This document shows, in pieces, positions 17,003 through 36,986 of a DNA stretch of 64,000 nucleotides; position 1 is the stretch's first letter, and every line of letters starts with the position of its first letter. The translations under genes and the position numbers were made by a program. A model generated the notes under the pieces. It saw nothing but the letters and a program-made list of their open reading frames with translations, searched no databases and was not told the DNA's origin. The DNA is taken from IMG/VR virus record IMGVR_UViG_3300037424_000495, positions 1 through 64,000 of that record; one strand, written 5' to 3'. The DNA comes from a virus. Lineage: Duplodnaviria; Heunggongvirae; Uroviricota; Caudoviricetes.

Positions 17003-19695
17003 GCGAGGCCGGATACATAGCGTTTATTACCTGTGCCAACGACGAGTGGGTAGGTTAAAGGCATGTTTCTTTGCACATGGATTTTTGTCCAACTATGTTT
17101 TTCAGCCGGTGCAACTTGTTCATAGAAGCGTATGAAAAAATCTTTGAAGCTAATTTCTTTTGCGTCGGCTATGCGATCACAGTATTCGTCTATAAACACT
17201 TCTAATAAATTACGATTTACGCTTTCGGCTTGTCGTTTACTTTCAGTTGTGACAACCGGAATACGAAGTCGATCCATGACAGGGGGCAGTTCCAAGTGCA
17301 TTAAAGTGTAGAGAAAATGCGGAGCCTCTTTTTCTAATTCAATTTCCATCTTGGATTTAGCAATGATTTGCTCGGACAACAAATCAGGGACGTTAATGAC
17401 AGCAATGCGGGTGTCCCCTGGAAAAATAGGACAATTTTTCCGGCTGTTAGCTGTCTGCACCCAGTGGGTTGAATTTGGTTGTTCATACGCATCGTGTCGC
17501 ATTTTGCGTATCGTGATTGTGCGACCCGTTACCCATGTTTTGATTTTGGCGTGCGCACCCGGTGATTTGGAAATATCTTTTTCTTCAATCGCGCAGATAA
17601 TGGCTCCGGCTAGTTCGCCGTTGAAATCGTTGTTACTTGTTAAAGCGTGGTCAGCTTGAACTACACCTTTAGTGACTAGTATTTTTAGACTTTCAAAGAA
17701 AATACTTTTGCCACAGTTTTCTGTGCCAAATAGAAATAAATATGGTGTAGGCTCAAAAGGACAGCGGAAAGCACATGCCGTCCAAGCTCTTAAGTAATCT
17801 GCACCAGTTCGGATACCAGCACGTTGTGCCCACGCTAAATCTTTTAACGCGGATGTCAATTCAGTGCCGATATGCTCATAGATTTTGTCCCAGTGTGGGT
17901 GATAAGGAACTTCGTCATCACCTAATTCTATAGGTGCAAATCGGAATTGAGCCGCATCTATGTTCCACTGGCGATCACCAGGGTACTCCTCACGAAACGG
18001 CAAATTTACTAGTCGCCAAGACTGCCAGCCTGCACCGCCCATGACGCTTTCTGCGTCCGCTTTGGGTAGACCAAGATTTTGCAACATCATTTTGACTTGT
18101 CCGGCCGGTTGTCGGAGCCAGTCTTTGTTCTGCTTTGTAACCCAGCCAGAATGTTCGAGATTGGCAGACACTAGACAACGAACGACACTGTCATATTTTC
18201 CGATTGTGTCGTCTGCTTCATCATTTTGATCTATCTTCACGTCGAAGATGCGGACCCATTTGCCTGTTTTCTCCAGCCAGCCGGGGAGGGTAACATTATT
18301 CTTCGTGTCTTCTTTTGTTCGTTCAACTTGTGCGATTAACCGACCGTCTTTATGCGATTTAAGTGTGATTTTTCTTTCGTGGACCGTGGTAGGGTCTAAA
18401 TCAAGTTTCTGTCCGATTGCGTCAGCCGCTTTTATCGCATTGTTGATGTCTGTAAAAACGAAGCCACCGCCCTCTTCCTCTATACCCTCGTGCATTTTGC
18501 AGGCCGAGGCTAGCGTGGGGTAACGATTAAAATAGCAGGTAGTCCAGCCATCGTCACTCTGAGTCCAAGTGTCAGCCTCATTGATTCCCGGTGAAAAACG
18601 AAAGACTCGCCACCCGCCATTTGTTAACGGAAAAAGGAAACAATTGGGCGAGCCTTTATCATGCCCCTCAGAAATTGTTTTGAAGATGCCAATAAGATGG
18701 AGTTCTTTACGCGAGGTATCCAGTAGTTGCTGTAATGCGTGTGTGTGTGTTTGGAGTAAGTGATGGTCAGCTATCCACAGTGTTGTGTAACCTGATCGCA
18801 TCAAGGCTTCAATTTGAGCCTTATGGCTGTCGTCCAATGGAATCATTTTTCGGCCAGATGCCAAAGTCTCGAACGGGTCTTGGTCATCTTCGGTAATTTG
18901 GTTGACACGGATTTTATTGCGGCGACCTTTAACAACTTCGATGTGATCTTTCCAATTCAGTGGGAGATCGACCATAGACAACCGCTTACTTGCAGACTTG
19001 ATAATTTCCAAACCGTGATTTTCGGCAGTCATTTTTCGATGCCATATCCACATAACGTGCCCACAGGCGTCGATATGTGAAGCAAAATCGAAGTTAACTT
19101 CCGCAGACATCATTCCCAGAATACATCTGGCTAACGCAGCGTGTTCGGTGTGATTTTCACTTGGGATACCTTCATCATCTAAGTAGACGTACAAATGGAT
19201 ACCGCCGCCGCCGGTTGAGCGGCGCACCTCGACATAGGGCAGCGCACAGGCGGCTTCTTGGACCTTTGTTAATTGTTCGTCGTCAATTCCAATTCCCTTT
19301 GCGTGTCCTGTGATAGAGTCGAAATCATAGGCAAAATGCCGTGAACGACGGGCCTCCCAGTCCCATCCTGTCATGCCAATACCTTCTGCATAAACATCGA
19401 GTGGAAATGATAAGGAATAGTCGTTGAAAGTTGGCTCGGTATCAGCTTTTTTGGGGATGCGGACGTTGAACCATTCGTTAATCCCGTCCGACCAAGTAGA
19501 TTGTTTACCTCCGACTGGTTCGCCATTGTCTGGAGCCACTTTTAATTGGGTCTCCATATTCTTTCCCCAGCGTGCGACGAGATCAGCGTTGGCTGAAGTC
19601 TTTCTTGCATCCAAGAAGCTACGCAGGGCATCAGTGACTTTGGGCATTTGGTGATCTCTCGTCTTACAGAGCGTGTAAACAGTCTGAGGGCGCAT
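16969..19695 (-). CDS. bifunctional primase-polymerase (prim-pol) / SF3 (D5-like) helicase
   Basis: 908 aa; N-terminal GGGGIHLYVYLDDEG prim-pol-like motif; C-terminal Walker A FGTENCGKS and Walker B-like AIEEKD. Confidence 0.7.
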   Translation of the reverse strand: MRPQTVYTLCKTRDHQMPKVTDALRSFLDARKTSANADLVARWGKNMETQLKVAPDNGEPVGGKQSTWSDGINEWFNVRIPKKADTEPTFNDYSLSFPLDVYAEGIGMTGWDWEARRSRHFAYDFDSITGHAKGIGIDDEQLTKVQEAACALPYVEVRRSTGGGGIHLYVYLDDEGIPSENHTEHAALARCILGMMSAEVNFDFASHIDACGHVMWIWHRKMTAENHGLEIIKSASKRLSMVDLPLNWKDHIEVVKGRRNKIRVNQITEDDQDPFETLASGRKMIPLDDSHKAQIEALMRSGYTTLWIADHHLLQTHTHALQQLLDTSRKELHLIGIFKTISEGHDKGSPNCFLFPLTNGGWRVFRFSPGINEADTWTQSDDGWTTCYFNRYPTLASACKMHEGIEEEGGGFVFTDINNAIKAADAIGQKLDLDPTTVHERKITLKSHKDGRLIAQVERTKEDTKNNVTLPGWLEKTGKWVRIFDVKIDQNDEADDTIGKYDSVVRCLVSANLEHSGWVTKQNKDWLRQPAGQVKMMLQNLGLPKADAESVMGGAGWQSWRLVNLPFREEYPGDRQWNIDAAQFRFAPIELGDDEVPYHPHWDKIYEHIGTELTSALKDLAWAQRAGIRTGADYLRAWTACAFRCPFEPTPYLFLFGTENCGKSIFFESLKILVTKGVVQADHALTSNNDFNGELAGAIICAIEEKDISKSPGAHAKIKTWVTGRTITIRKMRHDAYEQPNSTHWVQTANSRKNCPIFPGDTRIAVINVPDLLSEQIIAKSKMEIELEKEAPHFLYTLMHLELPPVMDRLRIPVVTTESKRQAESVNRNLLEVFIDEYCDRIADAKEISFKDFFIRFYEQVAPAEKHSWTKIHVQRNMPLTYPLVVGTGNKRYVSGLAWKINREGADS

Positions 19696-35578: not shown

Positions 35579-35583
35579 GCTAA

Positions 35584-35610
35584 TCGAGAGGAAATCGAGA
35601 GGAAATCGAG
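35584..35610 (+). repeat. tandem 12-nt repeat overlapping the RBS of the next gene
   Basis: CGAGAGGAAATCGAGAGGAAATCGAG immediately upstream of ATG 35611. Confidence 0.5.
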
Positions 35611-36000
35611 ATGGGAAACTGGAATATCACTATACAAGGGATTGGTAGTCACGGTAACGGTAAACCTGAAATCGACGCTGATTTATTGGCTGTGGATTTT
35701 GTGAATTATCTACAGTCAAGGGGCCAAATAATAGAATCGGCTAGTTTTACCTGTGGTGGAAAAGTCGATTTGATTGAAAAGAGTGGGCGTGTGAAAATAC
35801 TGGTCAACGGCGTTTCTTATAAATCTCTACATACAGTGTCTTATGAAGAGGTAAAGAAACTAGCAGGATTCATTGCCCCAGTCGTTACTATAACATTCCG
35901 AAAAGCAAAGTTTGAAAACGCAGGGATTCTTGGACTGGGGCAATCTATCAAAGTCATCGATGGAACAATCTTTGACGTGGCTGATACAAGTAATGTTTAA
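35611..36000 (+). CDS. hypothetical protein
   Basis: ORF in track with GAGG-containing RBS. Confidence 0.5.
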   Translation: MGNWNITIQGIGSHGNGKPEIDADLLAVDFVNYLQSRGQIIESASFTCGGKVDLIEKSGRVKILVNGVSYKSLHTVSYEEVKKLAGFIAPVVTITFRKAKFENAGILGLGQSIKVIDGTIFDVADTSNV

Positions 36001-36017: not shown

Positions 36018-36986
36018 GTGTCAACTATGGTAAGCAACAATGTGGATATACATACCCTCAGCCTGTGCTCCGGCGGTGCCGGACTCGATCTTGGACTTGA
36101 ATTGGCTCTCGGAGCAGTTCGCACAGTCTGTTGGGTGGAGTGGGAAGCCTTCGCCATCGAGTACCTGGCGTCGGCGATGCAAGCGGGTTGCTTGGCTCAA
36201 GCGCCTATTTGGACGAATTTGCGAACCTTCGACGGCCGCCCGTGGCGTGGCGTCGTGGATTGCATCACTGCAGGGTATCCTTGCCAACCGTTCAGTTTGG
36301 CCGGTAAGCGTCGTGGACAAGCTGACCCAAGACATCTATGGCCACATGTCTGTAGAGTCATTGAAGAAGTTGAACCAACACTCGTATTTCTCGAAAACGT
36401 GCCCGGCCATCTCACCCTTGGATTCGATGAGGTCGCCCGAGACCTTGAAAGTTTGGATTACAAAGTTGCGGCGGGTCTCTTTACAGCGGAGGAAGTTGGC
36501 GCAAGCCACAAACGAGAACGATTGTTTACCCTTGGCGTGGCCATCACCTCGCACAATTACTGGAGGAGCAGAATCGGCTCAACGGAAGAAAGAATTGGGC
36601 AGGTTGAATGCGGGCGGCGGGGATTTGCAGGCGGCAGTAATCAATTGGCCGACGCCCACGGCGCGAGATTGGAAGGACGGAGCGTGCGAGAATGCAAATG
36701 TCCCGGACAATGGATTATTGGGTCGAGTAGTAGTGCGACAGCACACACACACACACACAACTATTCCCACCAAGACCCAATGAACTCGATAAATGGTCTC
36801 AAGTGCTCAAAGAAAACCCGTGCCTCAGCCCCGCGATTGAATCCGGTGTTTGTGGACTGGTTGATGGGTTGGCCCGAACTGAATGGCTTCGACTTCTCGG
36901 CAACGGAGTGGTCCCGTTACAAGCAGCGTATGCGTTCTGCTCTTTGTGGGCTTCTATCCGAGGTGAGTAATGGGAAAGATTCGTAA
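36018..36986 (+). CDS. DNA (cytosine-5)-methyltransferase, frame-disrupted; candidate phase-variable gene or pseudogene
   Basis: Frame 0 has motif I LSLCSGGAGLDLG, motif IV GYPCQPFSLAG, motif VI FLENV, motif VIII HKRERLFTLGV. TRD-like WPSPRTITGG / NWPTPTARDWKDG repeats are in frame +1 (track ORF 36040-36783). Motif IX FVDWLMGWP is back in frame 0, and an LLGNGVVPLQAAYAF motif X-like stretch is in frame +2. Confidence 0.55.
   Translation: MSTMVSNNVDIHTLSLCSGGAGLDLGLELALGAVRTVCWVEWEAFAIEYLASAMQAGCLAQAPIWTNLRTFDGRPWRGVVDCITAGYPCQPFSLAGKRRGQADPRHLWPHVCRVIEEVEPTLVFLENVPGHLTLGFDEVARDLESLDYKVAAGLFTAEEVGASHKRERLFTLGVAITSHNYWRSRIGSTEERIGQVECGRRGFAGGSNQLADAHGARLEGRSVRECKCPGQWIIGSSSSATAHTHTHNYSHQDPMNSINGLKCSKKTRASAPRLNPVFVDWLMGWPELNGFDFSATEWSRYKQRMRSALCGLLSEVSNGKDS
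36742..36757 (+). repeat. (CA)8 dinucleotide microsatellite inside the C5-MTase gene at a frame junction
   Basis: GCACACACACACACACAACT, read as HTHTH / HTHTHT in the two frames. Confidence 0.8.

Follow-up and report, generated by a model that had tools for sequence, protein, structure and literature searches.

How can a DNA methyltransferase be encoded when its conserved motifs lie in three different reading frames? This question is raised by a cytosine-5 (C5) DNA methyltransferase locus at positions 36018-36986 of a 64,000-nucleotide stretch of viral DNA (the window; positions 1 to 64,000 of IMG/VR virus record IMGVR_UViG_3300037424_000495), in which a CA microsatellite sits at a frame junction. 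A first-pass annotation of the DNA had offered two answers, a phase-variable methylase gene or a decaying pseudogene. Our analysis indicates that the locus is very probably a two-frame C5 methyltransferase gene of the kind known from M.EcoHK31I, in which a catalytic open reading frame (ORF A) is overlapped on the same strand by a second, ORF B, in the +1 frame. The most important feature is this conserved two-frame, probably two-chain methylase architecture, which is widespread and unannotated. In the window copy, a (CA)9 tract in a low-constraint joint is one unit out of register and breaks both ORFs at once.

ORF A is a C5 cytosine DNA methyltransferase. The frame 0 ORF matched PF00145 over residues 12-176 (E 7e-31), M.HhaI and M.HaeIII were among its sequence matches, and motifs I, IV, VI and VIII were read in frame 0 between 36063 and 36527, where they had been annotated. 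The earlier placement of motif IX in frame 0 and of motif X in frame +2 was likewise borne out. The ORF list of the window gives the locus as a frame 0 ORF of 322 amino acids (aa) at 36018-36986 together with a frame +1 ORF of 247 aa at 36040-36783. The motifs do lie over three frames, as had been noted; what scatters them is a second full-length conserved ORF and not a series of frameshifts in a single gene. The region read earlier as a target-recognition segment in frame +1 does contain WPSPRT and WPTPTARDWKDG in that frame, but the reading begins at the ATG at 36040 and not near 36540. Because there is no frame junction near 36540, the locus has one frame break and not three. In the window, A occupies frame 0 before the tract and frame +2 after it, while B occupies frame +1 before the tract and frame 0 after it.

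The gene was then reconstructed against intact homologues, as the first-pass annotation had proposed, and two complete same-strand ORFs came to light instead of the single gene expected. In Synechococcus phage Yong-M2-251, A (379 aa) and B (371 aa) start 7 nucleotides (nt) apart and are both full length, B reading MWLYVPN...EPSTAAHGV...WPAPAARDHKG...LNPLFVEWLMGWPPGWT...SATELSRFKQLMRSAL. The same double ORF was found in Acidovorax phage Alfacinha1, whose annotated coding sequence is B, and in 8 of 10 IMG/VR relatives at 51-63% identity; the relation B = A+1 is kept in about 30 loci. The displaced A tail of the window copy is collinear with the intact A of Yong-M2-251 and of the IMG/VR relatives, and the displaced B tail fits the B consensus RLNPxFVxWLMGWP...ATxWS....RMRSxLxGL. 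A reconstruction as one protein (frame 0 to +1 to +2), which tblastn aligned in one piece to a cyanophage methylase, was set aside as misleading: its middle aligned poorly and belongs to B.

Scanned with a B profile, IMG/VR yielded at least 431 loci and the species-representative genomes at least 467, and the overlap was checked in the best 80 and the best 79 of these, respectively. A and B overlapped by at least 700 nt in 78 of the 80 IMG/VR loci and 77 of the 79 species genomes. In these loci PCQ and motif X were in A, motif X was never in B, LNPxFVxWLMG(W/F)P was in B, and the third frame had a median open span of 8-18 codons. Motif X shared one chain with motifs I-VIII in 74 of the 80 IMG/VR relatives and 73 of the 79 species genomes. 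The window copy as assembled has motif X in frame +2 and motifs I-VIII in frame 0, and thus in different chains; with (CA)8 or (CA)11 it would have them in one chain too.

The openness of the two frames is far from random. All 11 divergent homologues had 0 stops in either frame over 840-1110 nt, with 5-18 stops in the third frame. When the codons of these 11 homologues were shuffled synonymously, 2-5.5 stops were expected in B given A (0 stops in 0-6.7% of the shuffles) and 5.5-10.6 in A given B (0 stops in no more than 0.2%). The long two-ORF overlap of the window gene had been called unusual, and rightly so: shuffling predicts 5.5 stops for the +1 frame, with 0.1% of shuffles free of stops, and 10.6 for A given B, with not one of 1000 shuffles free of them, and none is present. 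The N region of B and the middle of A were each open in 14 of 14 homologues.

Substitutions between relatives pointed to selection on both frames. In the close pair L005/L006, change per site at codon positions 1/2/3 was 0.03/0.01/0.18 and 0.016/0.009/0.166 in the neighbouring genes, and 0.078/0.022/0.060 in the dual gene. Substitutions were also counted by segment, summed over four close pairs and given at A positions 1/2/3. The N region had counts of 16/13/57, indicating selection on A, with an A wobble rate about half that of the flanking genes. The middle had counts of 36/6/7; the dominant A position 1 is the wobble position of B, and B therefore appears to be selected there. The segment FPPGP...PAxE was mostly A (11/4/18), and the motif IX segment (5/1/4) and the motif X segment (5/4/6) had few changes in any phase, consistent with double constraint. 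As judged from these counts, the selected frame switches along the gene from A to B to A and then to both.

The same picture was obtained at deeper divergence. B-frame identity was 0.363 versus 0.231 expected from A alone (z 40), and the test of constraint on both frames gave z 40 and 62. A-frame identity was above the B-based prediction in the N and C regions and not in the middle (z 0-2.6). In this gene, the identity of the +1 frame exceeded expectation with z 9-11; for the genes next to it in the same genome pairs, the corresponding value was z 2-3. These comparisons indicate that each frame is under purifying selection over and above the constraint it receives from the other. Each ORF, by this measure, has its own selected segments, in which the other is merely an open "passenger", and the apparent junction near 36540 is the place where conservation at the protein level passes from A to B.

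The two ORFs begin at nearly the same point. An RTGTGG hexamer was present in 25 of 26 homologous loci, B reading it as RTG-TGG (M/V-W) and A as xAT-GTG-Gxx. In L004 and L021-L024, frame A has a stop just upstream of the hexamer, so that the GTG 2 nt after the B start is the only possible A start, and the start codons of A and B therefore overlap. A further in-frame ATG for A lies upstream in the window, at 36027. The A of three loci is interrupted at the catalytic PC|Q by inteins, which are of two different alleles of 326 and 348 residues. B had 0 stops through the 326 and 348 intein codons, where 3.5 and 4.9 were expected (0 stops in 0.5% and 0% of shuffles). On such comparative evidence, B appears to be translated independently from its own start.

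One intein-bearing locus (L012, same as L033) also has an insertion between the motif IX-like sequence and motif X. The insertion holds a 105-aa ORF in the B frame (L012:3608-3925) with an HNH-like CxxC...HH...CxxCH pattern; B stops just ahead of it (WLMGWGL*), and A is open throughout. It may be a homing endonuclease within the dual gene.

The structure of A was modelled with AlphaFold2 on a homologue (P0209) and an alignment of 81 sequences. The model had a predicted template modelling score (pTM) of 0.71, with a predicted local distance difference test score (pLDDT) of 90-97 at residues 1-180, 85-97 at the motif X helix, and below 50 in the middle and in the stretch overlapping motif IX of B. 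It superposed on M.HaeIII and M.HhaI over 170-181 columns of these 324-327-residue enzymes, with a root mean square deviation of 2.2-2.4 Å and a target TM-score of 0.44. In the model, A is a large domain without a structured small or target-recognition domain, and its middle is predicted to be a disordered linker. Between motifs VIII and X, the chain of A has neither a structured small domain nor motif IX; the motif IX-like sequence sits in B.

The conserved parts of B are an N-terminal helical region, 1-7 repeats of the WPTPxARDxKG type, and the motif IX-like LNPxFVxWLMGWP. When the B profile was run exhaustively with HMMER (E<=1e-3), 45,587 protein clusters at 50% identity were matched, most of which start at the conserved B start. 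The profile had no real match in Pfam, NCBIfam or PDB sequences, and a match to the MS2 coat protein was dismissed as a chance alignment of 25 residues. PHROGs places B under "DNA methyltransferase" or unknown. The sequence LNPxFVxWLMGWPxGW of B sits at the canonical place of motif IX, between motif VIII and motif X, and it resembles motif IX of M.HhaI, KLHPRECARVMGYPDSY. The label is a pattern resemblance and not a profile match, as the Pfam model does not extend that far. B was modelled on a homologue (P0005) with 65 sequences as a mostly helical protein, the better segments being the N region, a basic helix ahead of the first WPTP and a C-terminal helix. The predicted isoelectric point was 6.0 for A (acidic) and 9.8 for B (basic).

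M.EcoHK31I was reportedly described as a two-polypeptide methyltransferase by Lee, Kam and Shaw in 1995, and its alpha chain of about 309 aa is close in length to the 313 aa of an intact A here. According to published accounts, the beta chain of this YGGCCR-specific enzyme is encoded in another frame inside the alpha gene, both chains are needed, and alpha holds motifs I-VIII and X while beta holds motif IX (PMC2836561; PMC3404938). The locus in the window shares the plan: a second polypeptide is encoded in a different frame of the methyltransferase gene (B = A+1, with non-random openness), A carries motifs I-VIII plus motif X, and B carries motif IX. By this analogy, A and B would be made from one mRNA with one ribosome-binding region and would assemble into an active enzyme, A providing catalysis and cofactor binding, and B providing motif IX and probably target recognition. 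A two-chain enzyme would be the most likely mechanism, because M.EcoHK31I is split in the same way as A and B. The locus also differs from that enzyme. B spans the whole gene from an overlapping start, whereas the second chain of M.EcoHK31I is an internal segment of 176 aa; the B family comprises tens of thousands of protein clusters from phages and prophages of many phyla; and the window copy has a microsatellite at the joint.

Several observations weigh against a two-chain enzyme of this kind. The likeness to M.EcoHK31I was drawn from its published description and not from a sequence alignment, and the published target-recognition domain is predicted in alpha rather than beta, whereas here the only conserved sequence of the variable region, the WPTP repeats, is in B. 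The support for translation of B is comparative throughout. The role of B as the target-recognition subunit, which we consider probable, is based on its short likeness to motif IX, on where it lies and on the pattern of selection. The B model had a pLDDT of 63 and a pTM of 0.27, and a Foldseek search with this low-confidence model gave no fold match. In addition, about 5-10% of the database copies are frameshifted elsewhere in the gene (L010, L029, L035, P0122, P0160, P0235), among them the closest relative, L010, in which the frame changes just after motif VIII. Because of this frequency, a broken copy is not in itself unusual.

Could B instead be a real overprinted protein unrelated to methylation, for example a DNA-binding or anti-defence accessory, with A working alone? 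B has no detectable homologue of known function, it is basic and of low predicted order, as overprinted viral proteins often are, and some A proteins are annotated and assumed to be active by themselves. We consider this unlikely, however, since A is without a structured small or target-recognition domain and in its middle the one conserved segment is a shadow cast by B, while B has the motif IX pattern L-x-P-x5-(L/V)-M-G-(W/Y)-P at the canonical place; moreover, M.EcoHK31I, with exactly this split, needs both chains (PMC2836561). Another explanation would be a single mosaic methyltransferase, in which motifs I-VIII, target recognition with motif IX, and motif X are joined by mutational or programmed frameshifts from A to B to A. 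The selected segments do follow the canonical order along the DNA (I-VIII, variable region, IX, X), the PHROG family phrog_1008 matches the middle of B together with an A-type motif X, and motifs IX and X share one frame in mycobacteriophage Chanagan. On the other hand, a mosaic leaves unaccounted for the openness and conservation of B, which extend from its own start across the whole N region and the inteins, as well as the openness of the middle of A. In 14 homologues, neither a stop nor a conserved shift site (slippery sequence or hungry codon) was found where motif VIII gives way to WPTP, the zero frame being open throughout, and natural single-chain forms with an A head and a B middle amounted to 2 of 120, both indel chimeras in which the junction before motif VIII destroys motif VIII. 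A Pfam scan of artificial mosaics only ever matched the N half and did not separate the frame models. A mosaic enzyme is thus extremely improbable, and we return to the two-chain gene.

The tract in the window copy is the sole frame break. It had been read as (CA)8 at 36742-36757, but both a regular expression and Tandem Repeats Finder (9.0 copies) gave nine units. That the microsatellite lies exactly at the frame junction, and that one unit more or less re-joins the upstream and downstream frames, was correct. With (CA)8 or (CA)11, the A start leads to intact A and the B start to intact B. With (CA)9, the A start yields a 319-aa fusion of the A head to the B tail, without motif X, and the B start a 247-aa truncated B without motif IX. 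With (CA)7 or (CA)10, the A start yields truncated A and the B start a fusion of the B head to the A tail. One CA unit fewer than in the window restores both A (313 aa) and B (314 aa). The tract is therefore a simple-sequence repeat within a reading frame, in which changes of one unit shift the frame.

Since both ORFs are broken at the tract, the enzyme would be off in the assembled genome, and the assembled phage is probably without active enzyme. Both displaced tails are intact, with no decay and every conserved motif kept. A plain pseudogene with multiple independent indels, the alternative raised in the first-pass annotation, does not agree with the homologue comparison, which gave a single break. 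The 319-aa fusion product (P0036) carries the annotation "site-specific DNA-cytosine methylase" and is on record on two contigs from two sources, JGI/IMG and Logan, which makes a one-off assembly error unlikely. Tract length was compared across lineages once: the tract is (CA)9 and out of frame in the window, and (AC)11 and in frame at the orthologous site (L010:3784-3805) of the closest relative (L010, 72% identity). No comparable repeat in this gene was found in about 120 other loci, no copy above about 81% identity was found in viral and metagenome contigs, and no contig on record came up when the 319-aa product and the two neighbouring proteins were looked up by exact match. The intact tails and the (AC)11 of the relative make reversible phase variation plausible.

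In that relative, the frame change lies at L010:3480-3620, and a single ORF of 356 aa results, made up of the A head followed by the middle and tail of B; there is no repeat at the junction. Similar chimeras with other junctions are P0122, P0160 and P0235.

What then is the tract? It may be a selected contingency switch, in which slipped-strand mispairing toggles between (CA)8/11, with the methylase on, and (CA)9/10, with tails swapped or truncated and the methylase off. The tract sits exactly at the joint where both ORFs tolerate length change, its three registers give three distinct sets of products, both out-of-frame tails are intact and without stops, as expected if the lineage is often on, and an orthologous (AC)11 persists in a relative at 72% protein identity while none occurs in about 120 other loci. 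However, a single allele of this phage was seen, and the relative with an in-frame tract has its gene broken elsewhere. In addition, known phase-variable methylases are bacterial Type III mod and Type I hsdS genes with mostly homopolymer or 4-5-nt repeats, and dinucleotide switches are known mainly in Helicobacter surface genes. We therefore hold the switch as a tentative possibility. Somewhat closer to probable, though still short of it, is that the tract is a neutral microsatellite in an unconstrained linker that slipped by one unit lately, so that a freshly inactivated gene is becoming a pseudogene. Because A is a passenger and B variable at the tract, repeat expansion would be costless there; frameshifted members of the family occur fairly often in databases, L010, the sister copy, has a break as well, and (CA)9 is the consensus in two assemblies. 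Yet no second lesion was found in about 950 nt of either frame, and a perfect repeat of 9-11 units kept across 28% protein divergence is unexpected for a neutral sequence. The sequence facts fit a reversible switch and a recent neutral slip equally well. Finally, the extra CA unit could be a sequencing or assembly error, the real phage gene being an intact two-frame gene, since repeat tracts are prone to polymerase stutter and the break is exactly one repeat unit. This seems quite improbable, as the same 319-aa product, which requires (CA)9, came from JGI/IMG and from Logan re-assembly contigs, and 18-bp dinucleotide tracts are normally resolved by short-read consensus.

The two-chain gene can be compared with other known systems. 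The M.AquI genes are consecutive with a short overlap, whereas A and B overlap fully. M.AquI (CYCGRG) is an alpha/beta heterodimeric C5 methyltransferase split into motifs I-VIII and IX-X (PMC3404938). Like A and B it is a natural two-chain enzyme split in the variable region, but its motif X is on the small chain and here it is on A. Phase-variable methyltransferases include Type III mod, Type I hsdS/hsdM and Type IIG enzymes, for example one from Campylobacter (PMC4889913). The window copy shares with them a simple-sequence repeat in a methyltransferase frame that shifts the frame when a unit changes. It differs in its phage host, its Type II-like C5 methylase and its dinucleotide repeat, and the shift, here that of a candidate switch, hits two overlapping ORFs and swaps their tails rather than just truncating them. 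Same-strand overprinted genes are also known from phages and viruses, such as lambda Rz/Rz1 (reviewed in PMC8227390 and PMC7017920). There too, two proteins come from two frames of one DNA stretch and the second is compositionally biased and partly disordered. In contrast, A and B overlap over about the full length of the gene (850-1500 nt); the overlap is ancient, with conservation across phyla, and its two products appear to be parts of one enzyme and not unrelated proteins.

M.EcoHK31I is the single enzyme for which a methylase chain read from a second frame of its gene has been described; our literature search for overlaps of this kind found nothing else described, and a tblastn search of plasmids with the motif IX region found no EcoHK31I-like system. 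The evidence presented here indicates a large and ancient family. The loci and species genomes found with the B profile range from Planctomycetota to Alphaproteobacteria and Chloroflexota, and cultured examples are E. coli Kagunavirus phages, Burkholderia phage phi1026b and a Synechococcus PCC 7002 phage. B has no Pfam or NCBIfam model, and annotators call A or B alone, B sometimes under the name "methyltransferase". The annotation of phage methylases could change as a consequence, and "short" C5 methylases without a recognition domain could be explained. The pair would be an unusually long and deeply conserved same-strand dual-coding system, in which the overlapping starts and the natural intein experiment would allow the co-evolution of two proteins to be studied, and the tract in the window is a directly testable case of phase variation in a phage. 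A bolder proposal, which we regard as rather doubtful, is that the dinucleotide tract is a three-state switch of a two-subunit methylase, with one register intact and two swapping tails, that would allow the phage population to keep both methylated and unmethylated DNA as a hedge against host defences that depend on methylation or are sensitive to it, and that the two-frame ATGTG layout, with catalysis in one frame and the recognition and motif IX chain in the other, would be a general and as yet unannotated rule for tens of thousands of phage C5 methylase genes.

Table 1. Positions of the features of the two-frame methyltransferase gene; positions are those of the window unless a locus is named.
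Feature	Position	Strand	Frame and remarks
ORF A, N-terminal part	36027-36539	+	frame 0; motifs I, IV, VI, VIII
Dual start hexamer ATGTGG	36040-36045	+	B ATG 36040; conserved A GTG 36042-36044
ORF B up to tract	36040-36741	+	frame +1
MWIYIPS	36040-36060	+	frame +1, conserved B N-terminus
Motif I LCSGGAGLDLG	36063-36095	+	frame 0
GKPSPSSTW	36142-36168	+	frame +1, B
EPSTAARGVASWIASL	36223-36270	+	frame +1, B
Motif IV GYPCQPFS	36273-36296	+	frame 0
Motif VI FLENV	36387-36401	+	frame 0
Motif VIII HKRERLF	36507-36527	+	frame 0
WPSPRT	36538-36555	+	frame +1, B
ORF A, middle "passenger" segment	36540-36741	+	frame 0; open, protein sequence unconserved
LADAHGARLEG	36645-36677	+	frame 0 shadow of WPTPTARDWKDG of B, in A middle
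WPTPTARDWKDG	36646-36681	+	frame +1, B
(CA)9 microsatellite	36742-36759	+	sole frame break
ORF A, C-terminal part, displaced	36758-36970	+	frame +2; stop 36968-36970
ORF B, C-terminal part, displaced	36759-36986	+	frame 0; stop 36984-36986
Out-of-frame tail of truncated B, TIPTKTQ then stop	36760-36783	+	frame +1
LFPPRP	36761-36778	+	frame +2, A tail
SPAIE	36827-36841	+	frame +2, A tail
Motif IX-like LNPVFVDWLMGWP	36837-36875	+	frame 0, B tail
Motif X LLGNGVVPLQAAYAF	36893-36937	+	frame +2, A tail; GNGVVP 36899-36916
SATEWSRYKQRMRSALCGLL	36897-36956	+	frame 0, B tail
Methylase locus with intein of 348 residues	L012:1711-4029 (same as L033)		GYPC-FAAGT...VHN-CQPFS
Methylase locus with intein of 326 residues	L030:1103-3265		GYPC-FAAGT...VHN-CQPFS

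Some relatives of the gene showed further features. In Burkholderia phage phi1026b (L014:802-2862), no stop closes the B frame where the methylase gene ends, and the frame continues into the next gene, which is ParB-like; a fusion of B to ParB is possible there. The B frame likewise runs into the next gene in L084, L087, L090 and L115-L117, the open spans, with that of phi1026b, being 586-788 codons. In the Fromanvirus methylases (L013:662-985, Mycobacterium phage Chanagan gp83; L200-L202), the annotated frame contains motif X as well as a motif IX-like EWLMGLPRGW, and the motif LLPTPLARDSKG lies inside a +1-frame ORF of 108 codons. A selection check of this LLPTP ORF had too few substitutions to draw on. 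The methylase gene of the E. coli Kagunavirus phages (L015, L203-L205; 412-1341) has a +1 ORF of 266 codons with WPTP, WATPTANDYRG and LNPAHSRWLMGYPPEW. Between phages Golestan and fEg-Eco06, the methylase gene differs at 6 of 930 nt and the adjacent helicase at 50 of about 600 nt; the methylase is near invariant in the Kagunavirus pairs and hence gives no readable substitution phase signal.

The methylase gene has 54% G+C, compared with 47% for the 64-kb window, and its neighbourhood is a phage replication module. Upstream lies a family A DNA polymerase gene with Cys-rich insertions (PF00476, 32930-35578), and downstream an endonuclease VII gene (PF02945, 37399-37911) that overlaps the preceding ORF by 23 nt. 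A Megablast search of the locus against GenBank phages gave no match. The closest genome-borne relatives, at 59-62% B identity, are L120 (same region as L016; Thermoguttaceae chromosome OY762224.2, 1.52 Mb) and L127, both of Planctomycetota; the prophage-like region around them also encodes ribonucleotide reductase, dCMP deaminase, dUTPase and two N6/N4 methylases. These relatives hint at the host phylum of the window phage.

Other repeats were also observed. An 11-nt tandem repeat, AATCGAGAGGA, is present in 2.7 copies at 35582-35611, between the DNA polymerase gene and the next ORF, and it ends at the start codon of that ORF. The sole other dinucleotide repeat of at least 5 units across the 64-kb window is (GT)6 at 18739-18750. 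In a related viral contig (L003, same as L017), a gene upstream of the methylase contains (CGAAGA)9 and (GAC)16 tandem repeats at 1733-1832.

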